A stretch of 64,000 nucleotides of DNA, taken from a virus. Taxonomy: Duplodnaviria; Caudoviricetes. The notes beneath the pieces were generated by a model that worked only from the letters and a program-made list of their open reading frames with translations, searched no databases and was not told where the DNA came from. This document shows positions 14,831-31,632 of the stretch, one piece after another (position 1 is the stretch's first letter; each line of letters begins with the position of its first letter). The position numbers were made by a program, and so were the translations under genes. The stretch covers positions 14,903-78,902 of the IMG/VR virus record IMGVR_UViG_3300006115_000009. One strand, given 5' to 3'.

Positions 14831-14838
14831 TGACACCT

Positions 14839-15636: not shown

Positions 15637-15643
15637 CCGGCGC

Positions 15644-15678
15644 GGATAACCGGCGCGGAAGTTGCGCGCCGGTTATCC
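15644..15678. terminator. perfect 14-bp inverted repeat after ORF 14839
   Basis: GGATAACCGGCGCG-7 nt-CGCGCCGGTTATCC. Confidence 0.5.
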
Positions 15679-15741
15679 GGTGGCGCGTGTCCGGCGCGCG
15701 TGTCCGTAATGGGCGCGCGCGCCGGTTGCGTGTCCGGCGCG

Positions 15742-15920
15742 ACGTGGGCGCGTGGGCGCGCGACGTGGGCGCGTGGGCGCGTGGGCGCGTGGGCGCGTGG
15801 GCGCGTGGGCGCGTGGGCGCGCGACGTGGGCGCGTGGGCGCGTGGGCGCGTGGGCGCGTGGGCGCGTGGGCGCGTGGGCGCGTGGGCGCGTGGGCGCGCG
15901 ACGTGGGCGCGTGGGCGCGT
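15742..15920. repeat. tandem 8-bp repeat (GGGCGCGT)n, 20 GGG tracts, three 13-bp variant units
   Basis: Directly visible in sequence. Confidence 0.95.
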
Positions 15921-15924
15921 GTCG

Positions 15925-15968
15925 TTGTCCACAACTTATCAACAAGTAATCCACAGGGCTGTGGATAA
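15925..15968. promoter_or_regulatory. cluster of four DnaA boxes
   Basis: TTGTCCACA (15925), TTATCAACA (15936), TAATCCACA (15947), inverted TGTGGATAA (15960). Confidence 0.7.
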
Positions 15969-16060
15969 CCCTCGATCGGCCCCTATCGCGCCCGTGTATG
16001 CGCGTGCGCCGAGAGCGTTTCAGGAAATTCCCCGTGTGCGCGATGTATTTCAGGGGTGGT

Positions 16061-16230
16061 CACGCGTGCGTAATCGCGCCCGTGTGCGCGTGCGCGCCCG
16101 TGTGCGCGTGCGCCTGCGCGCCCGTGTGCGTGCGTGCGTGTGCGCGCCATCGCGCGTATGCGTGCGCCTGCGTGTGCGCGTGTGCGCGCGTGCCATCGCG
16201 CGCGTGTGTGAGCGCGCGTGCGAGCGCGCG
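16061..16230. repeat. alternating purine-pyrimidine (CG/TG) tract
   Basis: Uninterrupted 25-nt alternations at 16123-16147 and 16169-16193. Confidence 0.85.
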
Positions 16231-16619
16231 ATAATTCTGTAAATACGCGCCACGCGTGAGAGAAATTTAGGGAATTGCCCGACGTGCGAATGTGTTCCTG
16301 GAAATCGCGCGCGTGTGTGAGGGAATTCCAGGAAATCCTCGCGTGTGTGCGTACACTACGCGCGGAGGCGCATCAGGAAATCGCGCAAGTGTGTGGGAAA
16401 TCCTTTTTTTCCCGCGCGCAAACCCTTTTTTTACGCGTGCGCGCAACTCCTTTTTTTTCGCGCGCGTATGCGGGCAGCATTTTTTTTCGCGCGCGATAAA
16501 TCGTGCTGACCAATCGCGCGACGGCGCACACCACCGTCACCAGGAAAATTCACGGAATTCTCTGTGGTGGAATTGTATAGTGGGGTGGTATCGCGCTCGA
16601 GGTGGCACTACCACCTCCC

Positions 16620-16769
16620 CTATTCGGGGAGGCGGCGTGCGCTTGGGTGACGGCGCTTGGCCTGTTCGACGGCCTCGGCCTCGGCCAACTGAAGGGCGGC
16701 CTCCTGCCAGTTCCAGACCAGAGCGACCACGCCGTTGCTGGCGTTCTTGCGGTGTTCGGACTTCTTCAT
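16620..16769 (-). CDS. 49 aa hypothetical protein driven by divergent dyad promoter
   Basis: MKKSEHRKNASNGVVALVWNWQEAALQLAEAEAVEQAKRRHPSARRLPE; GAAAGGA RBS, ACAAG leader hairpin, TGT-TAATCT 14 bp from dyad 16829. Confidence 0.65.
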   Translation of the reverse strand: MKKSEHRKNASNGVVALVWNWQEAALQLAEAEAVEQAKRRHPSARRLPE

Positions 16770-16913
16770 AGTGTTCCTTTCACTTAGCGGGCTTGTCCCG
16801 CTGAAACCAGATTAACACAACGGCTCGCATCGCGCACGCGCGATTCGATCGGCCAGTGATATGCTGGATTTCGTCAGGGGGCAAGCCCCTGCCAATACCC
16901 CAAGGGGATACTA

Positions 16914-17057
16914 ATGGCTTTCACTCAGCGACTTCAGGGCGACGTTTCAACCGGCAACGGAATGGGCGTAAACGCTTTCGGGCAAGAGGTGCGTATTGAG
17001 TTCTGCTGTCGGAACAACGCCGACGGCTACGACTGCGGTTGCGGAGAGGAGTGGTGA
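16914..17057 (+). CDS. 47 aa Cys-containing cassette peptide
   Basis: MAFTQRLQG...EFCCRNNADGYDCGCGEEW after dyad, TGA-TATGCT and GCAAG hairpin. Confidence 0.55.
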   Translation: MAFTQRLQGDVSTGNGMGVNAFGQEVRIEFCCRNNADGYDCGCGEEW

Positions 17058-17156
17058 GAGGGGCAATCGCGCGCATACGCAATCGCGCCCGCGCGATGGA
17101 ACCGGCTTAGTAATCTGTTGATGTAGTGATGTTGCTACCTTACGAAAGGATTTATT

Positions 17157-17255
17157 ATGTGCGAACACGGCGAGAAGTCATCAGAGCAGGTCTGCGGTAT
17201 CTGCTGGGGTGAGCCTACCCCCACCCTTGTCGCTCTCCTCGGTTGGGGGGAGTGA
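17157..17255 (+). CDS. 32 aa cassette peptide (C-x-H...C-x-x-C)
   Basis: MCEHGEKSSEQVCGICWGEPTPTLVALLGWGE after dyad 17082, TAATCT and GAAAGGA. Confidence 0.5.
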   Translation: MCEHGEKSSEQVCGICWGEPTPTLVALLGWGE

Positions 17256-17600
17256 TGGGGGTCATCGCGCACGTGTACGCGTATGGGCGCGATGGTCATC
17301 GTGTTTATGAAATCGTGCGCCCGCAAATGGTAAGTTCTCGGAAGCATTTCATAAAACGTTTGTGACGCAGATTTGTTTCATCGCGCTAAAAAAAATGCCT
17401 TATCGCTTTTCCACGCCCCGATTTGATTTTATCGCTATTTGGGGTAGGCGGACAGCAAGACTAAGGCATAACCCGAGGACGCAGTGCCGGTGGGCATACC
17501 AACAGTGTAGCACAGGGGGAAGCATCGCGCTCGCGCGATTAGAAGCGTTTCTGGTATTCTGGTGGTGTTCCGGCGAAAGGCGTCGGGCGGAAAGGTAGTT

Positions 17601-17822
17601 ATGTCGGTTCCACGTCACCACCGCAACGCGGTCTTGGCTCAGTTGTTTGAGTTCCTTACTCTCGTTGTGGGTGCTATTACCCTTGTTCTCACTGAGACTG
17701 TGTTGTTCTGGCAATACTCAGGCAACGAGTTCGGTGCGTTCCTGCTGTTCTTGCTGTTCTTCGTGGCCGGTGGGGTTCTCATCCCTATCATCGTAAAGCG
17801 GTTTAGGGCTCTGTTCCTGTAA
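17601..17822 (+). CDS. two-TM membrane protein (cassette)
   Basis: 73 aa, dyad 17524, TGG-TATTCT, GGAAAGGT; hairpin plus U-tract follows. Confidence 0.7.
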   Translation: MSVPRHHRNAVLAQLFEFLTLVVGAITLVLTETVLFWQYSGNEFGAFLLFLLFFVAGGVLIPIIVKRFRALFL

Positions 17823-17823
17823 G

Positions 17824-17869
17824 GGGTCGGTGGGGTGGGTGGTCTAGGCCACCTGCCCCGCCGATTTTT
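17824..17869 (+). terminator. intrinsic terminator
   Basis: GC hairpin followed by TTTTTTT. Confidence 0.6.
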
Positions 17870-18132
17870 TTGACCATTTGCCTATCGCGCCCGCTCGATT
17901 ATTGCGGGAATCGCGCGCCCTTACTTGGCAGCAACGCCAAAACATTTCATAAAAATCGCGCGTGAAGAAAGTATTTCGGAAAGCCGGCCACGTTTTCGCA
18001 AGACTTCCGCGTTCGTGACCGGCTTTCTATTTCCATTGTAGCAAAGTCGGCTCTAATCGCGCTCGCGCGATTTGGACCGCTTCTGGTATTCTGGGGGGGC
18101 AAGGGGAGATGCCCCGAGCGAAAGGCAAGGCT

Positions 18133-18258
18133 ATGAACGGATACGACGAGCAGACACAGCGCATTCTCTCCAACCTTGAGGGCGTGGACTTCACCACCTT
18201 GAGTTTGTGGGAGTTCGAGGACTTGTTCGAGGACCGAGACCCCTTCGAGTTCATTTAG
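18133..18258 (+). CDS. 41 aa acidic cassette peptide
   Basis: MNGYDEQTQRILSNLEGVDFTTLSLWEFEDLFEDRDPFEFI; dyad 18056, TGG-TATTCT, GAAAGG. Confidence 0.65.
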   Translation: MNGYDEQTQRILSNLEGVDFTTLSLWEFEDLFEDRDPFEFI

Positions 18259-18373
18259 GCGGTGAGGGGCGGGGGCGCAAGCCCTCGCCCTTTATCCCCG
18301 CAACTCGTATCGCGCACGCGCGATTAGAACCGGATTTGTTATGCTGGGGGGGTAGCCAAACGAAAGGGAGATT

Positions 18374-18565
18374 ATGGCATACAGCGAGACAATAGAGAGC
18401 CGTAGGGGCGAGGTTCTAAAGGGCGCACAGATTACAGAGGTGCTAAAGGCTCACGGCTTAGGCATACAGGGGTTTGCGTCGTTCCTAGATGACATTGGCG
18501 GCCTAGAGGAATACAACGAGGGCGGCATCCTTTGGGAAGAACTGATGGGGTGGTTGGGCTACTAG
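18374..18565 (+). CDS. 63 aa acidic cassette protein
   Basis: dyad 18309, TGT-TATGCT, GAAAGGGAG RBS. Confidence 0.7.
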   Translation: MAYSETIESRRGEVLKGAQITEVLKAHGLGIQGFASFLDDIGGLEEYNEGGILWEELMGWLGY

Positions 18566-18664
18566 CCCAATCACTTCACCCATCGCGCGTATACAGGTTC
18601 TTATCGCGCCCGCGCGATTTGGGGAGTTTTGTTATGCTGGAAACGTCAGAGAGAAAGGACACCA

Positions 18665-18868
18665 ATGAAACTGACACTGAGAGGCAAAAGGGTAGTTGTG
18701 TGGGGCGTTGCGCTGTTGGCGTATGCGCTGGCGTACTTCCACTTCGATAGCGAGATACCGCTAGACAACGTGGACGTTGTGCGTCAATGGGTGGCGGTCG
18801 GCCAGTCGCTACTAGTGGCGGTTCCGGTGCTGTTCGCCGGTGCTTACTTCGCAACACGGAAGGAGTAA
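18665..18868 (+). CDS. two-TM membrane protein (cassette)
   Basis: 67 aa, dyad 18603, TGT-TATGCT, GAAAGGA. Confidence 0.68.
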   Translation: MKLTLRGKRVVVWGVALLAYALAYFHFDSEIPLDNVDVVRQWVAVGQSLLVAVPVLFAGAYFATRKE

Positions 18869-18957
18869 GCAGTACCCTTATCGCGCACGCGCGATTAGGG
18901 GGTCGCTGTGTTATTCTGGATTTGTCGGGGAGACGCCCCGCGGGAAAGGCAACAACA

Positions 18958-19230
18958 ATGGCAACACACACGAGCAACCGAGAGGCGTGGCGTTTCATCG
19001 CCGAGCGCAAGCCGTTTCAGGGTAGCAACCTACGAGCGGAATACACGCTAGGGGACTACCTTATCTATTCCTACTCAACGCTAGTTGCATACATCGCTAA
19101 GACCGGCGAAACGTGGATTACGCCCGAGAAGTACAGCCAGACAACCGGACGGCACAAGTCGCACATTCGCCGAGGGTTCGAGGCGTACAAGGACAAGCAC
19201 GACACGCCCGAGAAGGTCGCAAGTCTGTAA
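18958..19230 (+). CDS. phage hypothetical protein (YSYST...KYSQTTGRH motif)
   Basis: 90 aa, dyad 18880, TGT-TATTCT, AGACG hairpin, GAAAGG. Confidence 0.72.
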   Translation: MATHTSNREAWRFIAERKPFQGSNLRAEYTLGDYLIYSYSTLVAYIAKTGETWITPEKYSQTTGRHKSHIRRGFEAYKDKHDTPEKVASL

Positions 19231-19389
19231 GTCTGCTAGGGGTCGGGGTGGGTTGCCCTGCCCCCTAGCAACACCCCCCATCGCGCGTTTTGATTTCTAT
19301 ACTCTTTCTTCCATCGCGCCCGCGCGATTTGAGCCGTCTGTGTTATTCTGGAAGCAACGGGGAAACGCCCCGAGGGAAAGGCAGGCATT

Positions 19390-19569
19390 ATGTCTGAAGC
19401 ACGCACGTCGGTATTCCTCACCGACGTAAAGCCCGAGACGGTTTACGTCTCAGTTAGCCTAGAGGACGATTTGGTCGTTCTCGACCTTGACGGCCTCACG
19501 GTTTATTCGCCGGTAGCGGTCATCAAGGAAGTTCTGGCTCAGGCTGCCGAGCGCAAGTTGGCCGAGTAG
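19390..19569 (+). CDS. 59 aa cassette protein
   Basis: MSEARTSVFLTDVKPETVYVSVSLEDDLVVLDLDG...; dyad 19313; not in the ORF track. Confidence 0.68.
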   Translation: MSEARTSVFLTDVKPETVYVSVSLEDDLVVLDLDGLTVYSPVAVIKEVLAQAAERKLAE

Positions 19570-19691
19570 TCCGAGGGTGGGTCGGGGGGAAACCCCCGAC
19601 CTAGCCCACCACTGCCATCGCGCCCGCGCGATAGAACCCGATTTGTTATGCTGGAAACGTAGGGGGCAAGCCTCTGCGGGAAAGGGTACAA

Positions 19692-19856
19692 ATGTACAGG
19701 TTAATTATTTGCAAGGACGGCTCTATTGAGTCGGAGGTCAAGTTCGACAACTATTCTTCGGCGGTGACGCTCTGTGAGCACCTTCGCCAGCAGGCTTGGA
19801 AGCACGAGGAAGTGGACTCGGAGTACTACGTCACTCGCACTGAAGTCGTGTATTAG
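19692..19856 (+). CDS. 54 aa cassette protein
   Basis: MYRLIICKDGSIESEVKFDNYSSAVTLCEHL...; dyad 19617, TGT-TATGCT, GAAAGGG. Confidence 0.65.
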   Translation: MYRLIICKDGSIESEVKFDNYSSAVTLCEHLRQQAWKHEEVDSEYYVTRTEVVY

Positions 19857-20012
19857 GAAAGGTCGGGGTGCAGTTTTGCCCCGCCCTTTTTTATCGCGCA
19901 CGACTTTTCCCCATAATAGTCCAGTAATTTCTATCGCGCCCGCGCGATTCGGCCCTTGTTGGGCTAATCTGGGTGTGTTGCCGGAGACGCCGGCGACGTG
20001 GAAGGGGTTCCT

Positions 20013-20396
20013 ATGCTTACAGCAACTAAAGTTGTGGAAGCGGTCAAGGCTAATGGCGGTGTATCGCTGAACATTGACGGCGCAGCGCCCACTAGCGGTT
20101 TTATGGTGTCGCTGGGTGCTAAGTGGTCTTACGTTGCCAGCGCGGACGTGTTGGACGACATTGCCAGCGCCGTGAACGTTGTGGGCGGTTTTCTCAACCG
20201 GCACAAAGTAGAGTTGTCCGCTAAGACTAACTATCTCGGTGCGTGGTTGTATGAAGGTCAGGTGTACCTAGACGTATCGGAATGCGTGAGCGACATTGAC
20301 GACGCGGTGAACGCCGGCATTGAACGTAATCAAATCGCAGTCTGGGACGTTGTCGCCGGTGCGGAAATCGCCACCGGCGGAAATGGGGAGGTGTGA
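20013..20396 (+). CDS. phage hypothetical protein (YLGAW...VYLDVS...QIAVWD)
   Basis: 127 aa, dyad 19933, TAATCT, AGACG hairpin. Confidence 0.72.
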   Translation: MLTATKVVEAVKANGGVSLNIDGAAPTSGFMVSLGAKWSYVASADVLDDIASAVNVVGGFLNRHKVELSAKTNYLGAWLYEGQVYLDVSECVSDIDDAVNAGIERNQIAVWDVVAGAEIATGGNGEV

Positions 20397-20736
20397 ATGC
20401 CCCAAATCCTAAATCGCGCACATATTAATCGCGCTCGCGCGATGGAGAAATCCAGCAAATCCCTAGTCGCGCGCGGCACGCCAGGAAAACTTTCATAAAA
20501 ACTCCGTGATGAAAGTGTGTTTCTATGAGCGTCTTAGTCGCTCGCTTCGGCGTTCCCTGTTCTCCGGTGTCTAAGAACCTTACCGGCAGTGTCCGTTCTC
20601 ACTGTTTGCTACATACCTTTCCTTCCCTCTGTTGCCAATAAGTATAAGCCAAATGTCCCATCGCGCTCGCGCGATTTAGGGATTTCTGGGCTATTCTGTT
20701 TGGGCAGGGGGAAACGCCCCCAGCGAAAGGAAAGAA

Positions 20737-21150
20737 ATGGCAACCATCAACCTAAAGGTGTCGAAGGCGAAACTCGTCTCGGCACTCGAAACCAAGTTAG
20801 AGCAAATCAAGACTAACAAGGCTAACGAAAAGAAGGCACTTCAGGTTCACGAGAAGGCTGTAGAGGCGTGGCGTAAGAAGGTCTTGGCGAGTATCCCCAA
20901 GACCCGAAAGCCGGACGAGTTCTCAGTCTGTACGCTCGGCTACGGCTCGTTCGCTGGCAAGACTAAGGTAGAAATCACCTACTACCTCGACAAAGCCCCC
21001 GAACGTCCTGAGAACGACGTGGAAGCGTTGCCGGACTACGCCTACCGCGAAACAGTGTCGGACATTGAGAGTGCGCTTCGTATCCTCGCCCTGAGCGACG
21101 AGGAGACAGTCAGCACTAGCACCTACAAGTCTGTGGCTAAGTACCTTTAG
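20737..21150 (+). CDS. hypothetical protein (cassette)
   Basis: 137 aa, dyad 20660, TATTCT, AAACG hairpin, GAAAGGAAAG. Confidence 0.75.
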   Translation: MATINLKVSKAKLVSALETKLEQIKTNKANEKKALQVHEKAVEAWRKKVLASIPKTRKPDEFSVCTLGYGSFAGKTKVEITYYLDKAPERPENDVEALPDYAYRETVSDIESALRILALSDEETVSTSTYKSVAKYL

Positions 21151-21160
21151 CCCAGCCAAA

Positions 21161-21193
21161 GGAGTGGGTCGGGGTTCTGCCCCGACCCACTCC
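21161..21193 (+). terminator. cassette terminator hairpin
   Basis: Perfect 14-bp stem GGAGTGGGTCGGGG/CCCCGACCCACTCC; related hairpins at about 19575 and 22085. Confidence 0.65.
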
Positions 21194-21285
21194 GCCTTTC
21201 CCCCTAGGGCATCGCGCACGCGCGATTGGGGGGATTTCTGCTAATCTGGAGTTGTCGGGGGCAAGCCTCGACGGAAAGGGAAACA

Positions 21286-21417
21286 ATGGAAACCATCTGG
21301 CAGTCAGTATTGACAAGCGAGTTCGTATCGGGTCTCGACCCTGACAACTTGCCTTACCTTATCCGCGACTTGGAAAAGTCTGTGGAAGCAGTCTGCCGTG
21401 AGTGGGGGTTGCTCTAA
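21286..21417 (+). CDS. 43 aa cassette protein
   Basis: METIWQSVLTSEF...; dyad 21211, TGC-TAATCT, GAAAGGG. Confidence 0.62.
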   Translation: METIWQSVLTSEFVSGLDPDNLPYLIRDLEKSVEAVCREWGLL

Positions 21418-21704
21418 TGGGTAGCCTTCACGCTCACGAGTTCGCAGAGTTGGCCGGCGAGGGGGTGATTAGCCTAGAGCAGTCTATCGCTGTTCATCTC
21501 ACCAGCAACCACTATCCGCCCGTGCCAACGTCAATGGTGCCGGCCTGTATTCAGGCCATCGAAGCCTGTAACGAGGACGAAGCCGACCGCCTTATCGACT
21601 TGCCCGACGGCGTGTTCTGGCGTCTGGGGGCAACGTCTGCGCCAGCGTGGGCAGTCGTTGAGGGGCATCACCTAGAGCCGTGGGTCTACTACGACGAGGA
21701 CTGA
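21417..21704 (+). CDS. acidic hypothetical protein (HLTSNHYPPVP motif)
   Basis: 95 aa, TAATG-coupled. Confidence 0.68.
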   Translation: MGSLHAHEFAELAGEGVISLEQSIAVHLTSNHYPPVPTSMVPACIQAIEACNEDEADRLIDLPDGVFWRLGATSAPAWAVVEGHHLEPWVYYDED

Positions 21705-21863
21705 GGGGTGGCGGGGCGAAAGCCCTGCCATTCCCCCCACCTAATCGCGCACGCGCGATAATCCAGTAATTGTGGGACAATAAACGTATCGCGCCCGCGC
21801 GATTTAGCAGTCTTTGGTGTATCATTGAGGTATCGGGGAAGCGCCCCGATAGGAAAGGAAGTT

Positions 21864-22079
21864 ATGGCAGAGCGTTCTGACGCACGAGTTAGCACCGATA
21901 TCCACTTGCGAGGTATCGAGACCGAAATTGAGGTCACCTACTACGACAACTTTGTCACTGTTGAGTTCGGCAACTGGCGCAACGGCACGACCAAGTTGTA
22001 TCTGACCAAGGAGCAAGCACAACTGCTCTCCAACAAGATTGCCCAAACCGCCCTTGCGGATATCTACGCTGTAGCGTAG
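21864..22079 (+). CDS. 71 aa cassette protein
   Basis: dyad 21788, TATCAT, AAGCG hairpin, GGAAAGGAA. Confidence 0.68.
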   Translation: MAERSDARVSTDIHLRGIETEIEVTYYDNFVTVEFGNWRNGTTKLYLTKEQAQLLSNKIAQTALADIYAVA

Positions 22080-22201
22080 TCGGTGGGTGGGTCGGGGGAA
22101 ACCCCGACCTACCTACTACCCCCCTATCGCGCCCGCGCGATTTAGGGTTCCCTGTGATACGCTGTTGGTGTTCCGGAGAAGCCGGAGCAGGAAAGGTAAG
22201 T

Positions 22202-22534
22202 ATGGAAGCAATTGAGATTACAGTTAAGACTTCTGTTAACGCACAGGAGTTCTGGGATGAAGTTACCGGCTGTGCTTGGGAAACGTGGGACTGGTGGACT
22301 GGCGTTCACTTTGACTCTCCCCTCGGTGCGGAAATTGGTGCAATTAGCATCGACTACATCGACCCCGAGACCGACGAGGAGTGCGAGGAAACTCGTGTCA
22401 TCACCATTCACGACTTGGTGTCGGCCTACGAGAAGGCGTCTGCGGCTCACTATATTGACTGGCAGAACCTCGACGCCTCGTCCGGTGACGTTATCTTCCA
22501 GTACGCCATCTTTGGCGAGGCCGTCTACGGCTAA
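22202..22534 (+). CDS. very acidic cassette protein (DASSGDVIFQYAIFGEAVYG end)
   Basis: 110 aa, dyad 22126, TGA-TACGCT, GAAAGGT. Confidence 0.72.
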   Translation: MEAIEITVKTSVNAQEFWDEVTGCAWETWDWWTGVHFDSPLGAEIGAISIDYIDPETDEECEETRVITIHDLVSAYEKASAAHYIDWQNLDASSGDVIFQYAIFGEAVYG

Positions 22535-22535
22535 T

Positions 22536-22551
22536 TGTTTCACGTGAAACA
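22536..22551. promoter_or_regulatory. parS: parS site (host ParB/Spo0J consensus)
   Basis: TGTTTCACGTGAAACA, perfect match to the 16-bp parS palindrome. Confidence 0.85.
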
Positions 22552-22786
22552 TCTCCCCGGGGCCGGTTGGGTTGGCTGGCCCCGGGGATATTACCCCCCC
22601 CCATCGCGCGAGCGCGATAGGAATAGTCCAGGGATTTCCCTACGCGCGGATGCGGCTGCGCGCCACAAACGTTTTGGGAAAGTTCTGTGATGCGAATGTG
22701 TTTTTAACGCATCGCGCGCGCGCGATTAGACCAGTGATTTGGTATGCTGGGTGTGTTCCGGAAACGCCGGCACAAGAAAGGTAGAA

Positions 22787-23200
22787 ATGGGTCTCGACCA
22801 ATACGCATACAAGGTGGATGCTAATCCACTAAACACCGACTTCTCGTTTGAGCGTGAGGATGACGAGGGTGTCACCATCTACAGCGAAATCGCCTACTGG
22901 CGTAAGCACCCCAACCTTCAGGGCTTTATGGAAGCCCTGTGGAACCACAAGCGCATCGAACAGCCCAACAACGGCGTGGATGAGGACGCTTGGTTTAACT
23001 GCCAGCCGGTTCGCCTCACCCTAGAGGACTTGGCCGACTTGGAGAAGTGCGTCAAGAACAAGTTGCTTCCCAGCACCACTGGCTTCTTCTTCGGTGATGA
23101 CGGAGACGATTATTACAAGAAGGATGACCTTAAGTTCATTAAACAGGCTCGTAGTGCCATCAAGGACGGCTACGAGGTCTATTATGATAGTTGGTGGTAA
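22787..23200 (+). CDS. conserved phage hypothetical protein (MGLDQY...YWRKH)
   Basis: 137 aa, fully palindromic dyad 22711, TGG-TATGCT. Confidence 0.75.
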   Translation: MGLDQYAYKVDANPLNTDFSFEREDDEGVTIYSEIAYWRKHPNLQGFMEALWNHKRIEQPNNGVDEDAWFNCQPVRLTLEDLADLEKCVKNKLLPSTTGFFFGDDGDDYYKKDDLKFIKQARSAIKDGYEVYYDSWW

Positions 23201-23356
23201 CCATACTGACGGCTAGTTTGCGGCCGTCACAGGGCGTTCTAGGGGTCTCTCAGAGGCTTCTAGAACGCCCACCTTTCCAACCATCGCGCACGCGCGATTG
23301 GGAAGGTTTCTGTTATTCTGGTTTCGGCGGGGAAAAGCCCCCCAAGAAAGGTAAGT

Positions 23357-23668
23357 ATGCCAACTTTACAGCAATACATTGAGGCGTGTGAGGAAACCGC
23401 ACCAGAGGGCGCCGTTGTCGCTTTCTACAACAACGACCCTTATTGGGCAACGTATGAGAAGGCCGACGTCGACGACTTTCGGCGCTCACTAGAGGACAGT
23501 TATCGGGGAGCGTATGACAGCGGTGAGGAATACGCTGAGGAGTTGACTAGTCAGTATTACATCATCCCCGATGGTTTGGAAGCGTACATTGACTACGAAA
23601 GTATGTGGACTGATATGCGTTATGGGGGCGCTTGGTTCGTTGACGGCTACGTCTTTGTTCCCTGCTGA
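23357..23668 (+). CDS. ArdA-like antirestriction protein (short form)
   Basis: Acidic; YRGAYDSGEEYAEEL...IPDGLEAYIDYESMWTDM resembles the ArdA C-terminal region; dyad 23283. Confidence 0.68.
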   Translation: MPTLQQYIEACEETAPEGAVVAFYNNDPYWATYEKADVDDFRRSLEDSYRGAYDSGEEYAEELTSQYYIIPDGLEAYIDYESMWTDMRYGGAWFVDGYVFVPC

Positions 23669-23783
23669 GCCGGCCGGTCTCGAAGTTTGAGGCCGGTGGC
23701 TTCTATCGCGCCCGCGCGATTGGGGAGACGTTTGGTAATCTGGGTTCGCAAGGGGAAACGCCCCGAGCAAGAAAGGAAACACA

Positions 23784-24050
23784 GTGGCAACGCAATACGC
23801 AGTGACCCTAGATTTGGGCAACCTAAAGGGCCCAGACGGAAACGCCTTGTCTATCGTGGCTAAGGCTAAGTCAGCACTAAGTCAGTTGGGCGAGTCTCGT
23901 CAAGAGATTGACAACTTTATCAGTGAGGCACTTAGCGGTGACTACGACCACGTTATCGAGACTGTGCGCAGTCGCTTCCACTACGTCACTTGGACTGGCT
24001 ACAGTCTGGGCGAGGACAGTGGGGATGAGTGGGATGATGACGATGAGTGA
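23784..24050 (+). CDS. conserved hypothetical protein (GPDGNALSI...ALSGDYDHVI)
   Basis: 88 aa, GTG start after GAAAGGA, dyad 23705. Confidence 0.7.
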   Translation: MATQYAVTLDLGNLKGPDGNALSIVAKAKSALSQLGESRQEIDNFISEALSGDYDHVIETVRSRFHYVTWTGYSLGEDSGDEWDDDDE

Positions 24051-24189
24051 GGGGCTGTCGGAATACGAACGCCTTTTGCTCATTGAGAACCTAAGAGACT
24101 TGCGTGGTCGTATCGGCAACGATGCCAACGAGCAACTGGCTACGGCTATCGGGTCGCTTATCTGGTCTATAGGTGGCGGAGATGAGTAA
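24043..24189 (+). CDS. 48 aa hypothetical protein
   Basis: MSEGLSEYERLLLIENL...; overlaps neighbours by 8 bp. Confidence 0.5.
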   Translation: MSEGLSEYERLLLIENLRDLRGRIGNDANEQLATAIGSLIWSIGGGDE

Positions 24190-24469
24190 GTACGTTTATC
24201 AGGCAAGGGTAGTGCTGGAGTTCTTTGTTGAGGCTACCAGCGCCGAGGAAGTCGAACCAGCGGTTCAGGTCTTTATGAACCACATAGCCGAGGCCGACCA
24301 GTTACTAGAAAGCCCCTATTCTTGGGAGTTTGCCGACTGGCAGATAACCGAGGTGGCCGATGAGGACGAACTTGGCGAGTGCGACACCTGTGGAAAGTCG
24401 TATGATTTGGCTAGTCGTGACGGCCGGTGCGGAGACTGTGGCAACTGCTCCGACCACTGTACCGATTAG
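24182..24469 (+). CDS. acidic protein with C-terminal CxxC-CxxCxxC zinc motif
   Basis: 95 aa; CDTCGK...CGDCGNCSDHC. Confidence 0.62.
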   Translation: MSKYVYQARVVLEFFVEATSAEEVEPAVQVFMNHIAEADQLLESPYSWEFADWQITEVADEDELGECDTCGKSYDLASRDGRCGDCGNCSDHCTD

Positions 24470-24580
24470 CCGGTGGCTACCCCGAAGTTTGGGGTAGTTG
24501 CCACCCATCGCGCCCGCGCGATTAGGGGATTTGTTGATACACTGTTGGCATACCGGAAACGCCGGTTAGGAAAGGAAACA

Positions 24581-24871
24581 ATGTCGGAACACGAACACAA
24601 CCACGAGGGCTTCATCATCAACGAGAAGGAGTTTGAGTTGCTGGGCGGTGCTGTCTTGCTGGCTACGGCAGGTGCTTACGTTGAGTGGCAGGCTGACGAG
24701 AACGACTTGGCACTTCAGTTTATTGCCAACGACTACCGCGACCTGCTCAACAAGTTGGCACCTTACTCAAATATCATCCAGTCAACTTTCACTAGCGACG
24801 AGTTCACTCGGAACATCAACAAGCAGATTGAGGAACGCAAGGCGCAGAAAGCGCAAGAAGCGCAGGGTTAG
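24581..24871 (+). CDS. 96 aa cassette protein
   Basis: dyad 24507, TGA-TACACT, AAACG hairpin, GGAAAGGA. Confidence 0.68.
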   Translation: MSEHEHNHEGFIINEKEFELLGGAVLLATAGAYVEWQADENDLALQFIANDYRDLLNKLAPYSNIIQSTFTSDEFTRNINKQIEERKAQKAQEAQG

Positions 24872-24995
24872 CCGGTGCGACAGGGTGGGGAAACCCACCC
24901 TGTCGTATCCCCCGAACATATCGCGCGCGCGCGATTTGGGGAACCAACTGATACGCTGTTTGTGTGCCGGAAACGCCGACACGGAAAGGGATGAA

Positions 24996-25883
24996 ATGAA
25001 CGCCTACGAAGTAGTGGCCCAGACGATTATTGACCAACTCGCAGAAGGTACCGCACCTTGGCGTAAGGAGTGGGTGGCGAGTGGATACGTGCCTAAGTCG
25101 CTGTCCTCACGCAAGCGGTACAACGGCATTAACCACTGGCTTCTGTCGTTCTCCGCATATGCCAAGGGCTACAACTCGCCTTGGTGGGGTACGTACAAGC
25201 AGATTACCGAACTTGGTGGCAACGTCATCAAGGGCGAGAAGGGTACGCCGGTAGTTCTGTGGCGTCAGTTGGAGACCGAGGACGCCGACGGCAAGCCCAA
25301 GAAGGCAGTGGTGATGCGTTACTTCACTGTCTTTAACGCCGAACAAGCGGAATGGGAGAAGGGAGCGCCCAAGTACGAAGCGCCGTTCTCTCGCCCAGAC
25401 TTCGAAATTATCGAAGGTGCTCAGCGAGTTGTAGGGGATTACTTCGGGCGAGAGGGTGCGCCTAAGTTGTCGTATGACGGAGATAGGGCTTTCTACTCGC
25501 CGTTGACCGATAGCATCACGTTGCCCGAGCGAACCAAGTTCACTACCGACCACGGCTTCTACGCCACTTCTTTCCACGAGATTGCCCACTCAACTGGTCA
25601 CAAGAACCGGCTCAACCGAGAGGGTGTCGTTGAGGGTCACGGCTTCGGTTCGGCACGCTACTCAGAGGAAGAGTTGGTGGCAGAGTTCACCGCTGCTTTC
25701 CTGTCCGCCGAGACTGGCATTCTGCCAGAAACGCTGGACAACTCAGCGTCCTACGTGGCGAGTTGGTACAAGGTGCTTAAGAACGACCCGAAGTTGTTGG
25801 TCAAGGCAGTGGCACGAGCACAGAAGTCGGCGGACTACGTGCTGAACCGCAAGGCAACCGAGACCGAGGGGGCGGTGGAGTAA
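24996..25883 (+). CDS. ardC: ArdC-family antirestriction/ssDNA-binding protein with zincin-like domain
   Basis: PWRKEW...YNGINHWLL...WGTYKQ...GGNVIKGEKGTPV; FHEIAHSTGH (HExxH); YSEEELVAE. Confidence 0.88.
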   Translation: MNAYEVVAQTIIDQLAEGTAPWRKEWVASGYVPKSLSSRKRYNGINHWLLSFSAYAKGYNSPWWGTYKQITELGGNVIKGEKGTPVVLWRQLETEDADGKPKKAVVMRYFTVFNAEQAEWEKGAPKYEAPFSRPDFEIIEGAQRVVGDYFGREGAPKLSYDGDRAFYSPLTDSITLPERTKFTTDHGFYATSFHEIAHSTGHKNRLNREGVVEGHGFGSARYSEEELVAEFTAAFLSAETGILPETLDNSASYVASWYKVLKNDPKLLVKAVARAQKSADYVLNRKATETEGAVE

Positions 25884-26088
25884 TCCACCGCTTTCCCCCA
25901 ATCGCGCACGCGCGATGGCGGCGTCAATAAATCCTAAAGAAACGCGCGGGCGGCACGACCTCGGAAAAGTTTCACAAAAACTTCGTGTCGAAAGAGTATT
26001 TCGCGTATCGCGCCCGCGCGATTTTCGGGGGTTATGTTATTCTTGTATTGGTTGGGAAAGCCCTGGCCAAATTTAGATAGGAGTAAAT

Positions 26089-26409
26089 ATGTGTGAAGAG
26101 ACAGAACCAAAGGAGTTCACTAGCAACGAGTTGGTGTATATCGCTAAAGATGGCGGTTATGGTGATGCTATCGGTATGTTGTTACTAGACCCCCGAACGA
26201 TTGGTGAGGGCGGACTGGAGCAACTTAACAATGCTGTTCGAAACGGAGAGAGTCTGTGGGAGTTTGTTCTGCGTCAACACGACGAGGGTAATGCTATCCA
26301 GGCAGGCGTGCACGTTATTTATGAGAACGGATACGTCTTTGGCGGGGACTTCTTTAAGCAGATACCGGCCGTCCTGAGCAAACTCAACCCCGAGTTGTTC
26401 CCTAGTTAA
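26089..26409 (+). CDS. hypothetical protein (cassette)
   Basis: 106 aa, dyad 26007, TGT-TATTCT, AGGAG RBS. Confidence 0.68.
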   Translation: MCEETEPKEFTSNELVYIAKDGGYGDAIGMLLLDPRTIGEGGLEQLNNAVRNGESLWEFVLRQHDEGNAIQAGVHVIYENGYVFGGDFFKQIPAVLSKLNPELFPS

Positions 26410-26530
26410 TAGGTATCCCCTGAGTAATTCAGGGGAGACCTATGGCATCGCGCGCGCGCGATTAGACCCCGAAATGCTACACTGGATTTGTCGAGGAGAT
26501 GCCTCGGCAGGTATGAAAGGAAACAAACCT

Positions 26531-26800
26531 ATGGGCAAGCCCCAAGCAGTACCGGAAGTAATCTGGCAGGAACCGCCAGTAGCAACTAAAAACTCACGCA
26601 AGGGAAACGGCAAGTACGCACTCATTGAGTTGTCGCTACGTGCCAACCCCGGCCAGTGGGCTTTGGTTCAGGAGAGCGAGAAGTCCGTTGGTGGACTGCC
26701 TCGCTTCGCAGGCCCCGACTTCGAGCGTGCGTACCGCACAGTTCGAGAGGGTATCCGAACCTTCAACCGCTACTACGTTCGCTTCGTCGGGCGTAAGTAG
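26531..26800 (+). CDS. hypothetical protein (WQEPP...LRANPGQWALV actinophage-like)
   Basis: 89 aa, dyad 26447, TGC-TACACT, GAAAGGA. Confidence 0.7.
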   Translation: MGKPQAVPEVIWQEPPVATKNSRKGNGKYALIELSLRANPGQWALVQESEKSVGGLPRFAGPDFERAYRTVREGIRTFNRYYVRFVGRK

Positions 26801-27075
26801 CGAAAGGTCAGGCTGTTAAAGGGTACCTTTCCCCGCCCACCGCAACTCTCTAGCAGGGTTGCGGTGGGTCAGCCGCTTCTCTATTTTTTTGTGGCCGATA
26901 CCATCGCGCTCGCGCGATAGTTCAGGCATTTGCTAATGTGGTGTATCGCGCTGGCGCGAGGCGAATTTCAGGAAATTTCTGATATGGTTTGGGTATCGCG
27001 CCCGCGCGATTAGGGGGTCTATCCCCTACACTGGATACGTCGAGGGAAACGCCCCCGACAACGAAAGGAAAGAAT

Positions 27076-27804
27076 ATGCCGTATAACAACAACACAGGTC
27101 TGCCACTCGCACAGTGCTGGCAGGACTTCCACGATGTATTGGACGCCGGTATTAACAAGGTCGTTCTCTACGGCCCCCCCGGTACTGGCAAGACCTACGC
27201 CGGTCTCACCTACGGACTGGGTGACCGACCAGCGTTCCGTCTCCCTTGTACTGAGGATATGACGGACAGCGAGGTTCGTGGTGCTTGGATGCCCAGCGAG
27301 ACTGGTGCGTTTGTCTGGCACAACGGACAGGGTACTAGGGCGTGGGCTACCGGCGGTCGCTTGGTCGTGGACGAGGTAGACCGAGCCAGCGGTGACGTTC
27401 TGTCGCTTCTGCTTGCCTACACCGACAGCGAGGCTTCGGCTTCGGTGGACTTGCCTACCGGCGAGACTATCCGACCCTATGACGGCTTCTCGGCTATCCT
27501 GACTTCCAATATCGAAAGTCCTGATGACTTGCCGACAGCGTTGCGTGACCGCTTTCCGGTTGCCCTGAACATTAACGTTCCGCACCCCGAAGCGTTGATG
27601 ACGTTGCCCGAACACTTGCGGACTGTCGCTACGGCGGTAGTGTCTGCCGAGCCTCACCGCCGAGCGTCGTTGCGAGCGTTCTACGCCTACGACACGCTTA
27701 TCAAGGGCGGTCTGTCGCAAGAGCGTTCGGCAGAACTCACGTTCGGCAAGGTACGTGCCGAGGCGATTATCGAAGCACTGCGCTTCGGTCGCTTGGGAGC
27801 GTAG
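27076..27804 (+). CDS. MoxR/CobS-like AAA+ ATPase
   Basis: LYGPPGTGKT, VVDEVDRA, LTSN, ALRDRF; dyad 26995. Confidence 0.85.
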   Translation: MPYNNNTGLPLAQCWQDFHDVLDAGINKVVLYGPPGTGKTYAGLTYGLGDRPAFRLPCTEDMTDSEVRGAWMPSETGAFVWHNGQGTRAWATGGRLVVDEVDRASGDVLSLLLAYTDSEASASVDLPTGETIRPYDGFSAILTSNIESPDDLPTALRDRFPVALNINVPHPEALMTLPEHLRTVATAVVSAEPHRRASLRAFYAYDTLIKGGLSQERSAELTFGKVRAEAIIEALRFGRLGA

Positions 27805-27805
27805 T

Positions 27806-27821
27806 TGTTTCACGTGAAACA
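27806..27821. promoter_or_regulatory. parS: parS site (host ParB/Spo0J consensus)
   Basis: TGTTTCACGTGAAACA. Confidence 0.85.
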
Positions 27822-27963
27822 ATGGTCGGTAGGGGCGGTGGTAACACACCGCCCCTGCCTACCAGCCACCCAGCCCTAATCGCGCCCGCGCGATTTGGGG
27901 GGTTCTGGGCTACAATGGATACGTACCGGAAACGCCGGTACATCAGTGAAAGGGAATATCACT

Positions 27964-29400
27964 ATGGCAACAAAGAAGCAAGAGATAACTAACGTTATCT
28001 ATCCAGAGTTGGTGGAAGCACTGCGCAAGGACACCGAGGGAGTACAGACGTGGAAAGTCCGAGCCGGTGGCTCAAGCCGAGGGGAAGCCTTTACCGACTT
28101 CGGTACTCACACTATCCAAGTGCCGTTCGGCAACGAGGACGCGGTGCGGTTGGTGCGAGCGCACGAACTCGCTCACACTCGCATTAGCCCTACCGACCAC
28201 GAGGCGTTAGCAGAGTGGGCGGAGTTTAACGGAATATCTGACCGAGTATTATCTTGCGCCGAGGAGTGGCGAGTTAATGCCGTTGTCGGCAAACTTGGCT
28301 ACGACCTCGACCTACTTGCGGACGGCACAGAGAGCGCACTAGGCAAGCGTATTGCCGAGACCAATACGCCCGAAGCCTTTAACGAGATGGTGGCTTTCGG
28401 TGCTGGCTTGGTCGGTACTAAGGCGTTTAACGCCTACAAGCGTGGGGTGAACTCCGTGAACAAGGAGTGGGCTACTGTTCTGGGCGAGTTGTCGAAGCAG
28501 GTTAAGAAAGTTGTTAACAAGTACGATACTGTTCGCAATATCGGAGACACCGAGTTAATCCACTTTAAGTCGGACAGTGACACTACCTTGCCACGTGGCT
28601 TTATCAACTACACCGGCAAGGTGGCGGAGATTATCGCTAGTTTCCAGCGTCCTATCTCTCAGGACGAGAGCAAGGGGTCTAGTGGCGTGAACTACGACAC
28701 CGGCTTTCAGGCAGGTCAGTTCGCACCGCTAAAGGTGGACACAGTTCACCGCCCAGACAAGCAGGTTAAGGGTCACTTGGCTAAGAAGCGTATCTACTCG
28801 ACGAGTGGCAAGGCGGTTCGCAACGCCTCTCGCCTACTTACCGACCCCCAGAAGCGTATCTTTTCACGGAAAGTTCGTGCCAACGGCGGTATTGTTGTAA
28901 TCGACTTGTCTGGCTCAATGGATTTGTCTAGCGACCAACTCGACCAACTGCTCGACGCAAGCCCCGGTGCGCTGGTCGTGGGCTACACTCACGGCAAGAA
29001 AGTGGCTCACAAGCCTAACTTCTGGGTGCTGGCGGAGAAGGGCAAGCGTATTAGCGACTTGTCTAAGGTTGGTGGCAATATCGGCAACGGCGTGGACGGC
29101 CCAGCGTTGGAGTGGGCTATCGCTCACCGCCGAGGTAGCGAGCCGATTATCTGGGTCTGCGACGGACAGGTGACGGACAGTCAGGACAAGGCTTTCACGC
29201 TGGGTGCGTATCTCTGCGCTCAAATGATGATTAAGCACCGCATTATCCAACAGCCGACTGTTGAGGGTGCTATCAAGGTCTTGTCTAATCCCAGCAGTGC
29301 TAAGTCCGAATACGCTGGTCGTGTGTCGTACTTTATCCCAGCAAGTCGGAACTACAACGCTACCTACGTCGCTAAATACAAGGACGGCTACGCCGAGTAG
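27964..29400 (+). CDS. CobT-like partner: HExxH metallopeptidase-like N-terminus plus vWA domain
   Basis: RAHELAH; VVIDLSGSM MIDAS motif; follows the AAA+ gene; dyad 27879. Confidence 0.72.
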   Translation: MATKKQEITNVIYPELVEALRKDTEGVQTWKVRAGGSSRGEAFTDFGTHTIQVPFGNEDAVRLVRAHELAHTRISPTDHEALAEWAEFNGISDRVLSCAEEWRVNAVVGKLGYDLDLLADGTESALGKRIAETNTPEAFNEMVAFGAGLVGTKAFNAYKRGVNSVNKEWATVLGELSKQVKKVVNKYDTVRNIGDTELIHFKSDSDTTLPRGFINYTGKVAEIIASFQRPISQDESKGSSGVNYDTGFQAGQFAPLKVDTVHRPDKQVKGHLAKKRIYSTSGKAVRNASRLLTDPQKRIFSRKVRANGGIVVIDLSGSMDLSSDQLDQLLDASPGALVVGYTHGKKVAHKPNFWVLAEKGKRISDLSKVGGNIGNGVDGPALEWAIAHRRGSEPIIWVCDGQVTDSQDKAFTLGAYLCAQMMIKHRIIQQPTVEGAIKVLSNPSSAKSEYAGRVSYFIPASRNYNATYVAKYKDGYAE

Positions 29401-29940
29401 CACAAGGTCAGGAGATTAAAGGGTTCACCCTTTCCCCCGCCCCACTCACCGGCTTCGGCTGGTGGGTGGGGTTCTCCGCTTCCCCCATATCGCGCGGGCG
29501 CGATGAGTAATTCTAGAACTACCTAGTAATCGCGCTGGCGCGATGGCCACATATCGCGCATAAAAAACGCCTGGGCGCAGTAGGTCGAGGAGAAAGTTTC
29601 ATAAAATCTCTGTGACAGAAATGTATTTTTGACGACGTGGCCGACGTCGATGCCATCGCGCGGGCGCCATCACAACGTATCGCGTTAAAGAAACGCCCGG
29701 ATGTGGCCGCGAAGGGCCAGACGTTTACTGAAAATGCCTGTGAAAAAAGTGTATTTTAAACCTTATTAACTACTCATTAATGACAATAAGGTACATTAAG
29801 GGTTAGTTACTGTAGGGTTTGTGGCCTTAAAAGTACACATACGCGCGTGAAATCGCATTTAGACAGGCGAAAACGGCATACTTTTCTCCCCAAACATCAA
29901 TAATTGCTTGGAAGATGTAGGGGAAAGGTACTTTCCGGTA

Positions 29941-30240
29941 CTACTCTGGACGCAAGACAGCCAGAATGCCGTCCCACGTTACCGTTACGTAGTCTTTACC
30001 CTCTAACTGTATTCCATAAGCCTTAGCGTGGTCGAAGACAATCTCATCTCCTACCTGTACCGGGCTGGTGAGTACGTTGCCCTTGTCGTCCTTAGTGTCT
30101 GCCCCCACCGAAATTACGGTGGCGGTCTTTGGCAATGGTTGAGTGTGCTTAGGTAGGACGAAGCCGGACTCTGTTACCTTGTCCTCGTGGACCAATTCAA
30201 TAATGACTCGGCCCGGGGTGCTTTTAAACGTGTCGCTCAT
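29941..30240 (-). CDS. groES: co-chaperonin GroES
   Basis: GRVIIE...KVTESGFVLP...VISVG...VQVGDEIVF...GILAVL. Confidence 0.85.
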   Translation of the reverse strand: MSDTFKSTPGRVIIELVHEDKVTESGFVLPKHTQPLPKTATVISVGADTKDDKGNVLTSPVQVGDEIVFDHAKAYGIQLEGKDYVTVTWDGILAVLRPE

Positions 30241-31491: not shown

Positions 31492-31543
31492 CGTTTTAAG
31501 TTCTGGTAGTCAATGCCGGAGAGATGTGCGCACAACATTGACG

Positions 31544-31631: not shown

Positions 31632-31632
31632 T

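Follow-up and report, generated by a model that had tools for sequence, protein, structure and literature searches.

We analyzed a 64,000-nt window of the IMG/VR virus record IMGVR_UViG_3300006115_000009 (bases 14903-78902 of a 78,902-bp contig) and, within it, a 13-kb array of small gene cassettes headed by copies of the palindrome ATCGCGC-NN-GCGCGAT, hereafter the dyad. The overlapping ends of the contig identify it as a circularly assembled phage genome. The host was assigned to the Actinobacteria because the genome carries three WhiB-family genes (9967-10392, 34698-35066, and 46474-46812), and this family is restricted to Actinobacteria and their phages. The region appears to be the early/accessory gene array of an uncultured, apparently lytic actinobacterial phage, for which no close cultured relative was found: there was no nucleotide match among 50,697 phage records, and the best match of the large terminase subunit TerL was 34% identical.

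Dyad copies and promoter anatomy of the array

An exact-match scan of the window identified 30 perfect copies of the dyad, all located within 16829-29544, and 100 dinucleotide-preserving shuffles yielded none. Three further copies have one mismatch (17884, 26945, and 29655) and none has two; perfect and one-mismatch copies together span 16829-29670. The remaining 14.9 kb of the genome hold no copy. The half-site ATCGCGC occurs an additional 25 times, including eight times in a non-coding block immediately upstream of the array. Only the 14 arm bases are invariant and the flanking sequence is variable; the two central nucleotides are CC or TC in 17 of the 30 copies. A first-pass annotation of this DNA had counted 30 perfect copies confined to 16.8-29.6 kb and had proposed scanning the whole genome and its relatives. 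Its count was reproduced exactly, and the wider scan added no copy from the rest of the genome and found the dyad in five further IMG/VR phage species.

The dyads are linked to promoter sequences at a nearly fixed distance. On the plus strand, a TAnnnT hexamer follows the dyad after 13-16 bp in 24 of the 30 copies, compared to approximately 1.6 expected by chance according to our estimate, and 23 of these 24 have an open reading frame (ORF) behind them. The hexamers are mostly TAnnCT followed by GG, and 18 carry the TGn extension. The dyad spans approximately positions -43 to -28, and no -35-like hexamer fits the array promoters, six of which also lack TGn. Promoters of the type TTGACA-17-TAnnnT occur outside the array (8897, 44280, and, on the minus strand, 37564) and not within it. 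The earlier annotation had listed 23 dyads with a -10 hexamer at 13-16 bp, and the 24 found here have the hexamers that it named; its proposal that the dyad sits at the place of the -35 element, with core operons using TTGACA promoters such as those at 8897 and 44280, is borne out as well. The TTGG or TTAG directly after the dyad was rejected as a -35 element, being just 9 bp from the -10 hexamer, and an alternative-sigma promoter was rejected since a TGnTAnnnT -10 is of the primary-sigma type. Together, these data support the dyad as a strongly selected DNA word linked to promoters, which stands at the head of approximately 24 transcription units in the place of the -35 element.

Behind the promoters, 20 of 23 leaders contain a short hairpin beginning within a few bases of the predicted transcription start, with compensatory changes at six of its seven pairs and a conserved G-rich pentaloop. 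A GAAAGG-type ribosome-binding site (RBS) precedes most starts, followed by one or two ORFs, and the distance from the dyad to the start codon is 75-85 bp. Leader hairpin and RBS agree with the first description of the array, whereas the terminators that it had placed at the ends of most cassettes stood only in part. A strong GC hairpin precedes approximately 16 of the 30 dyads, and the mean minimum free energy upstream of dyads is -21.1 kcal/mol compared to -14.9 kcal/mol in random array windows (Mann-Whitney p=0.001). However, these hairpins have no U tail, and a strict hairpin-plus-T-run terminator scan revealed no excess (15 seen versus 15.3 expected). The first dyad (16829) serves both strands, with a mirror-image -10 box, leader hairpin, and RBS for a divergent gene (Table 1). 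Mirror -10 boxes are also present at 17524 and 18056, where they lead into non-coding DNA.

Protein domain scans with Pfam, PHROG, and NCBIfam covered approximately 85 ORFs, including every cassette ORF of at least 54 amino acids (aa) and the flanks. The cassette products are mostly 32-137 aa long and acidic (isoelectric point, pI, 4-5), and two are hydrophobic. Recognizable among them are the ArdA-like and ArdC-type proteins and the AAA_5 ATPase with its 478-aa partner, a content typical of an early region devoted to host takeover and anti-defense. No Rfam family was found in the array, and convergent minus-strand genes begin past its end (29757).

Table 1. Coordinates of the cassettes and repeated elements in and next to the dyad array (window positions; B, B element; c, protein family; distances in bp are from dyad to -10 hexamer unless stated otherwise).
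Feature	Coordinates	Strand	Description
Non-coding repeat block	15640-16600		~1 kb, directly upstream of the array
Divergent 49-aa gene	16620-16769	-	mirror side of the first dyad: TGtTAATCT 14 bp away, leader hairpin, GAAAGG
Cassette 1	16829-17057	+	dyad 16829-16844, 15 bp, TGaTATGCT, hairpin, ORF 16914-17057 (47 aa)
Cassette 2	17082-17255	+	dyad, 13 bp, TAATCT, ORF 17157-17255 (32 aa); extra half-site 16 bp upstream
B element copies 1-7	17347-17379, 17945-17977, 20491-20523, 22672-22704, 25970-26002, 29597-29629, 29725-29757	+	
Cassette 3	17524-17822	+	dyad, 15 bp, TGgTATTCT, hairpin, ORF 17601-17822 (73 aa, hydrophobic)
One-mismatch dyad without -10	17884-17899		followed by B copy 2
Cassette 4	18056-18258	+	ORF 18133-18258 (41 aa); c24, also in G001, G002, G003, and G007
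Cassette 5	18309-18565	+	ORF 18374-18565 (63 aa)
Cassette 6	18603-18868	+	ORF 18665-18868 (67 aa, hydrophobic)
Cassette 7	18880-19230	+	ORF 18958-19230 (90 aa, basic; c25)
Cassette 8	19313-19569	+	ORF 19390-19569 (59 aa)
Cassette 9	19617-19856	+	ORF 19692-19856 (54 aa)
Cassette 10	19933-20396	+	ORF 20013-20396 (127 aa; c26)
Auxiliary dyad without -10, B copy 3	20428-20523	+	dyad 20428-20443
Cassette 11	20660-21150	+	ORF 20737-21150 (137 aa; c27)
Cassette 12	21211-21704	+	ORFs 21286-21417 (43 aa) and 21402-21704 (100 aa)
Tandem dyads, cassette 13	21744-22079	+	dyads 21744 (no -10) and 21788 (16 bp, TATCAT), 44 bp apart; ORF 21864-22079 (71 aa)
Cassette 14	22126-22534	+	ORF 22202-22534 (110 aa; c28)
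parS word	22536-22551		perfect
Composite unit, cassette 15	22603-23200	+	dyad without -10 (22603), B copy 4, dyad promoter 22711; dyads 108 bp apart; ORF 22787-23200 (137 aa; c29)
Cassette 16	23283-23668	+	ORF 23357-23668 (103 aa), ArdA-like anti-restriction protein (PF07275, E=2e-10)
Cassette 17	23705-24469	+	ORFs 23784-24050 (88 aa) and 24173-24469 (98 aa)
Cassette 18	24507-24871	+	ORF 24581-24871 (96 aa)
Cassette 19	24920-25883	+	ORF 24996-25883 (295 aa), ArdC N-domain and zincin peptidase
Composite unit, cassette 20	25901-26409	+	dyad without -10 (25901), B copy 5, dyad promoter 26007; dyads 106 bp apart; ORF 26089-26409 (106 aa, acidic; c31, in all six dyad genomes)
Cassette 21	26447-26800	+	ORF 26531-26800 (89 aa, basic; c32)
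Three dyads, cassette 22	26903-27804	+	dyads 26903, 26945 (one mismatch), and 26995, 42 and 50 bp apart; ORF 27076-27804, AAA_5 ATPase
parS word	27806-27821		perfect
Cassette 23	27879-29400	+	ORF 27964-29400 (478 aa), ATPase partner in all relatives
Array end	29489-29757	+	dyads 29489 and 29529 (no -10), B copy 6, one-mismatch dyad 29655, B copy 7

Seven dyads have no ORF behind them, and six of these also lack a -10 hexamer (the seventh, 26903, has TAATGT 15 bp downstream). Some auxiliary dyads precede a promoter dyad by 40-50 bp (21744; 26903 and 26945) or are located at the array end (29489, 29529, and 29655), and others lie approximately 50-70 bp upstream of the B element. The latter is a 33-nt AT-rich repeat with a consensus of about TTTCAtAAAAnnTnnGTGAnnGAAAnTGTnTTT, of which all seven copies are on the plus strand and inside the array. 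Twice it adjoins the next promoter dyad, giving dyad pairs 106-108 bp apart (101 bp in the related phage G005 and 111 bp in G002). The B element might be a UP-element-like or bending site; a sigma-54 site was rejected because its GG/GC spacing does not fit and the factor is absent from Actinobacteria. A B-like copy also precedes the canonical promoter at 44264-44285, and the element is homologous to eight copies in the dyad-less sister phage G006, there 5 nt upstream of TTGACA.

The non-coding block upstream of the array contains approximately 25 tandem 8-bp CGTGGGCG units with CGTGTGCGCG repeats, a cluster of DnaA-box-like words (15925-15968) that includes a perfect inverted TGTGGATAA, and four T7-8 tracts in phase, spaced by 21-29 bp, in addition to its eight half-sites. 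It could be an origin or the genome end that enters the cell first. The G+C content of 14000-30000, which comprises block and array, is 0.54-0.60 compared to 0.47-0.53 in the remaining genome (51.8% for the whole genome). Two perfect chromosomal-type parS words (TGTTTCACGTGAAACA) are each placed at the 3' end of a cassette right before a dyad, and two parS-like words are present in the array of G002 (L122; 10368 and 11242); no parA or parB was detected among the ORFs scanned. Outside the array, the genome encodes structural proteins (terminase, portal, protease/capsid, and tail proteins) and replication and recombination functions, including a DnaB-like helicase, an SNF2-type helicase, RecA, YqaJ/ERF recombinases, a single-stranded DNA-binding protein, and a deoxynucleoside monophosphate kinase. 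Five tRNA genes form two clusters on either side of the array region, at 9244-9396 (Asn and Gln) and 31418-31721 (Thr, Ser, and Ser).

Dyads in related phages and in prokaryotic genomes

The same dyad, again clustered in an array, was found in G001 (95.9 kb, complete; 20 perfect copies), G002 (78.4 kb, complete; 19 copies), and the fragments G003 (6 copies), G004 (7 copies), and G005 (15 copies), which gives 97 perfect copies over six genomes. A reversed control word had no match in any of these five. With one-mismatch copies included, the totals are approximately 27, 25, and 19 in G001, G002, and G003, and the one-mismatch variants fall mostly in the promoter-proximal arm (approximately 24 versus 4). 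Core proteins of the dyad phages are 40-80% identical to those of the present genome, and their G+C content ranges from 43 to 53%. The spacer between dyad and -10 is tight inside each genome and differs between genomes: 10-12 bp in G004, 12 bp in G001 (19 of 20 sites), 12-13 bp in G003, 13-15 bp in G005, 13-16 bp in the present genome, and 24-27 bp in G002. Taken as 11, 12, 14, 15-16, and 24-27 bp, the spacers rotate the dyad by over half a helical turn with respect to the -10 hexamer. In G002, a -35-like hexamer lies 2 nt after the dyad, and most dyads (L111 and L122) have a third half-site 13 bp upstream in the orientation of the distal arm (ATCGCGC-N13-ATCGCGC-NN-GCGCGAT), which suggests that binding there may involve more than a simple dimer.

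A purely structural role of the dyad, either as a Z-DNA or cruciform sensor of supercoiling or, in read-through transcripts, as a 3'-terminal RNA hairpin, is extremely improbable. The core is CG-rich, and the centers AC, GT, GC, and AT, which form the majority in G001, G002, and G004, give 12 bases of alternating pyrimidine and purine. However, the CC and TC centers of the present genome break this alternation, and 7-bp arms with a 2-nt center are short for cruciform extrusion; on these grounds, the supercoil sensor suggested at first is not supported. A stem would also allow compensatory changes, yet none was found in the arms across the approximately 100 perfect copies, and no T-run follows the dyad. 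Because the arms are invariant, compensatory variants are lacking, and the word is common to diverged genomes, the DNA word itself appears to be what is recognized.

The closest sister phages, G006 and G007, have no dyad and nearly no half-sites, with structural proteins up to 80% identical to those of the present genome. Their homologous arrays use TTGACA-17/18-TAnnnT promoters preceded by B-like AT-rich elements. A search with the array ATPase (alignment A1) returned 72 loci, of which only the closest contain the dyad. Other ATPase-sharing IMG/VR relatives (L153, L187, L195, L198, L146, and L173) have repeated words of their own in the equivalent region, namely GAGTAGATAAG approximately 50 times in 20 kb, CAGATTTACAA 12 times, the palindrome CTAAT-N-ATTAG 12-19 times and often abutting the RBS, and the canonical promoter CGATTTGACA-17-TAGGTT 15 times with the same leader hairpin. 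A scan of 2.9 million viral contigs for the dyad followed by an extended -10 gave no hit outside these phages. The same pattern had 29 scattered single hits in 185,579 prokaryote species genomes compared to approximately 35 expected by chance (our estimate), with no regulon and no dyad-bearing prophage. At most two dyads per genome were present in 401 genomes from the phylum of an Acidimicrobiales metagenome-assembled genome, presumably Actinomycetota; one of the sampled genomes, G093, is unpublished and gave one match, and no result rests on it. The dyad is clade-specific and not enriched in host-type genomes.

These searches bear on a further idea, in which the phage exploits a conserved host protein that binds the dyad, with either regulatory sign. 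The identity of 14 arm bases in phages that differ so widely in G+C content and protein sequence would be unusual for a co-evolving pair of phage regulator and operator, and no phage binder was found (see below). In contrast, no host-like regulon was seen, with at most two dyads per genome in the 401 sampled genomes and scattered chance-level hits in the species genomes, and the closest sister phages do without the dyad altogether; moreover, we know of no actinobacterial operator that matches it. We therefore regard a host binder as quite unlikely.

The order of the cassettes is permuted between genomes, with their orientation kept. Examples are c24-c25 versus c25-c24, c31-c32 versus c32-c31, ArdC-c29 versus c29-ArdC, and the ATPase block, which either opens or closes the array. 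This variation among relatives makes it plausible that promoter-headed modules are shuffled; the repeated promoter modules of 40-75 bp very plausibly act as substrates of homologous recombination, with reshuffling as a likely by-product. Dyad-flanked indels in Cluster O mycobacteriophages (PMC4351075) and PeSL-mediated exchange in T4-like phages (PMC4122927) would be in line with a mainly recombinational dyad, with PeSL- or integron-like gain, loss, and reshuffling of cassettes as its main role and regulation secondary. We consider such a role very unlikely. The constancy of the arms next to variable flanks points to recognition rather than homogenization, no integrase or recombinase was found beside the array, and the fixed distance to the -10 hexamer would be left unexplained. 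Breakpoints could not be mapped to dyads, as the contigs close enough in nucleotide sequence belonged to the same phages, were all 99-100% identical, and were free of indels. Thus, of the shuffling put forward in the first-pass annotation, the permuted order holds and an exchange point at the dyad was not obtained. Its comparison with an integron is not supported, since each cassette has its own promoter and neither an integrase nor an attC-like 3' site was found.

Proposed control of the array promoters and the search for a binding protein

The fixed link of the dyad to the -10 hexamer and its position over the -35 region mark it as a probable promoter-control site. A shared trans-acting regulator appears to be the best explanation for the same 14 bases in six phage species whose proteins are just 40-80% identical. 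The invariant arms without compensatory variants, the auxiliary dyads that lack a -10, and the additional half-sites point the same way. The symmetry of the dyad, together with the service of the first dyad to both strands, suggests a dimeric binder. The anatomy, statistics, conservation, and clade restriction of the dyad are observed, whereas binding by a protein, the phage origin of this protein, and the sign of regulation are inferred.

In the mechanism that we favor, a unit would consist of the dyad, a 13-16-bp spacer, an extended -10 (TGnTAnnCT), a 5' RNA hairpin, the GAAAGG RBS, one or two small ORFs, and often a GC hairpin. The extended -10 would be read by the host primary-sigma RNA polymerase, and the dyad would be the site of one sequence-specific, probably dimeric, and most likely phage-encoded DNA-binding protein, so that approximately 24 promoters could be switched together through one operator. 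A dimer bound over -43 to -28 would occupy the place of sigma region 4, and the dyad is therefore read as an operator; we propose, with a probability of roughly 0.4, that this operator mediates a common shut-off of the array promoters. The promoters would fire unaided from the extended -10 and later be shut off or roadblocked by the dyad-bound protein. Auxiliary dyads at 40-50 bp or approximately 101-108 bp, along with the half-sites, may provide for cooperative or looped binding.

Several observations are consistent with such occlusion. The position of the dyad relative to the -10 hexamer varies between genomes, auxiliary dyads without a -10 are in phase with promoter dyads, and three promoterless dyads are located at the convergent end of the array. 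The ArdA and ArdC anti-restriction genes should need expression before any phage protein exists, and -10-only and extended -10 promoters suffice in Actinobacteria.

Other observations weigh against shut-off and fit better with an activator site that replaces the -35 element, at which a phage dimer, possibly with a WhiB-like protein, would recruit or remodel the host polymerase at -10-only promoters. The array would then belong to a delayed-early or middle class, as in T4 MotA/AsiA or Mu Mor/C control. The sister phages G006 and G007 carry TTGACA where dyad phages carry the palindrome, an apparent evolutionary swap, and none of the 24 array promoters has a -35 element although TTGACA is used elsewhere in the genome. 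Spacing inside genomes is very exact, as in G001, mismatches are tolerated chiefly in the promoter-proximal arm, and six promoters have neither TGn nor a -35 element. The spacer of 11-16 bp is near the 11-13 bp of T4 MotA boxes, the G002 dyad abuts its -35-like hexamer in a classical activator position, and WhiB-like proteins are at hand. However, the center of the site shifts from approximately -31 to -36 and to approximately -47 across genomes with an identical dyad, a shift that a single stereospecific contact with the polymerase would hardly permit, and copying of entire promoter modules can account for uniform spacing inside a genome. Activation would also bring the anti-restriction genes late. 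We consider it a tentative possibility and lean slightly toward repression. The "master operator" of the first-pass annotation thus survives as a promoter-linked word, with a shared regulator as its best explanation.

No binder was identified, which likewise counts against shut-off by a phage protein. Domain scans, phylogenetic profiling (the six dyad genomes versus the dyad-less sisters G006 and G007 and the more distant dyad-less G008 and G010), recognition-helix comparison, alignment, a PDB profile search, and homologue look-ups yielded no credible candidate, and no homologue of MotA, AsiA, Mor, or C was detected in the Pfam and PHROG scans of approximately 85 ORFs. The full-length RecA gene is followed by a gene for an 80-aa winged helix-turn-helix protein that resembles the LexA N-domain and has no cleavage domain, a pair (40465-41725) kept in all relatives. 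This LexA-like protein (41483-41725; TIGR00498 residues 9-72, E=6e-4) was rejected as the binder because its recognition helix varies among dyad phages. A zinc-ribbon/coiled-coil protein (33879-34583) was rejected because it is 71% identical in the dyad-less G006. Family c31 (26089-26409; alignment A2) is the sole family present in all six dyad genomes and absent from the four dyad-less ones, and its homologues lie within the array or at its edge in every case. This family was rejected as well, being acidic (pI 4.4); it had no match in the homologue search or the ESM Atlas look-up, and no fold or family is known for it.

The WhiB family is known to bind region 4 of sigma-A. Two of the three WhiB-like proteins carry an added C-terminal Cys/His-rich tail (HGT..Y..H.CRC..C), and the tail of 9967-10392 matches PHROG families annotated as 'HTH DNA binding' and 'integrase'. 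A phage WhiB-like protein on sigma-A region 4, with a dyad-binding partner or through its own Cys/His tail, could in principle exchange -35 recognition for that of the ATCGCGC half-site. The dyad promoters would then form a phage-specific temporal class with a sigma-appropriation-like mechanism unique to actinophages, in which WhiB-like proteins would at most be functional analogues of MotA and AsiA. This variant of activation is unlikely, and the tailed proteins are not present in every dyad genome.

Comparison with known systems and implications

The first-pass annotation presented the array as a candidate new system, a novelty that was overstated: multi-copy dyads with perfect arms of 7-8 bp are known from actinophages (PMC4351075, PMC7302621) and shuffling modules from T4-like phages (PMC2839356, PMC4122927). 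Cluster O mycobacteriophages have a 17-bp dyad, TGTTCGG-NNN-CCGAACA, with 34 invariant and three one-mismatch copies in Corndog (PMC4351075). It is clade-specific, absent from host genomes, and of unknown function, and the authors proposed that it is the site of a dimeric protein; since the copies are scattered genome-wide, many of them intragenic and most away from promoters, they doubted a transcriptional role (PMC4351075). Both are clade-specific actinophage dyads with perfect 7-bp arms, a variable center, and tens of invariant copies, whereas the present dyad has another sequence and a 2-nt center instead of 3 nt, and lies entirely in one 13-kb array with 24 of 30 copies at a fixed -10 distance. 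The 18-bp inverted repeats of Microbacterium phages of Cluster EG, GATCAACC-NN-GGTTGATC, number 8-10 and precede start codons by 14-22 bp in short intergenic stretches of the non-structural arm, are conserved between genomes otherwise divergent there, and also have no known function (PMC7302621). They share the NN-separated arms and the intergenic, multi-copy occurrence in an actinophage, and differ in sequence, in having one third of the copies, and in their location near the start codon rather than ahead of the -10 hexamer.

PeSL modules are short composites of terminator and promoter that flank single small ORFs and act as exchange points in plastic regions of T4-like phages (PMC2839356, PMC4122927). 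The GC hairpin before about half of the dyads, the promoter module per ORF, and the permuted cassette order resemble them. In contrast, PeSLs lack a palindromic operator and carry early promoters of the ordinary sigma-70 type, host and phage lineage are different, and the permutation seen here is one of order at the protein level, with no indels between the available near-identical contigs. The array also differs from integrons, whose cassettes are promoterless, end in a 3' attC site, and are expressed from one common promoter, as no IntI or tyrosine integrase was found among the ORFs scanned and cassettes each have their own 5' promoter module.

Multi-operator repressor systems provide a further parallel. 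The phiC31 repressor reportedly acts at conserved inverted repeats that adjoin numerous similar early promoters, the actinophage early region being split into promoter-headed units. The stoperators of Cluster A, the C1 operators of P1, and the KorB operators of RK2 similarly offer one regulator 12-36 near-identical dispersed sites, and stoperators and C1 sites are asymmetric. The likeness lies in many transcription units that are co-controlled through repeated sites; the difference is that the binders of those systems are known and mostly belong to temperate phages or plasmids, while no repressor homologue, integrase, or partition gene was found here. The T4 MotA box (with AsiA) is asymmetric and lies 11-13 bp upstream of the -10 hexamer, and the dyads of Mu Mor/C overlap the -35 region; in these promoters, too, a good and often extended -10 hexamer goes with the lack of a -35 element. 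The resemblance to MotA/AsiA is one of architecture only, with a box in place of the -35 element and, for five of the six dyad phages, a spacer of 11-16 bp, and it is limited by the lack of detectable homologues and by a box position that varies between dyad phages. Distinct from all of these systems, every promoter of the 13-kb array is coupled to a palindrome that replaces the -35 element, and nature offers variants in spacing as well as sister phages that have a -35.

Several actinophage clusters are on record with repeated perfect palindromes to which no function was assigned, and here the palindrome is tied to a -10 hexamer in one copy after another. Related genomes supply natural controls in the form of one word at five spacings and an ordinary -35 element at the same place in sister phages, which makes the function of actinophage dyads directly testable. 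If the binder were found, it would offer a compact orthogonal pair of regulator and operator with approximately 100 natural promoter variants for Actinobacteria, and a first look at the control of expression in phages of uncultured, probably freshwater, Actinobacteria. Should appropriation of sigma by WhiB prove true, it would provide a biochemical role for the common actinophage whiB genes and the first MotA/AsiA-type switch outside T4-like phages.

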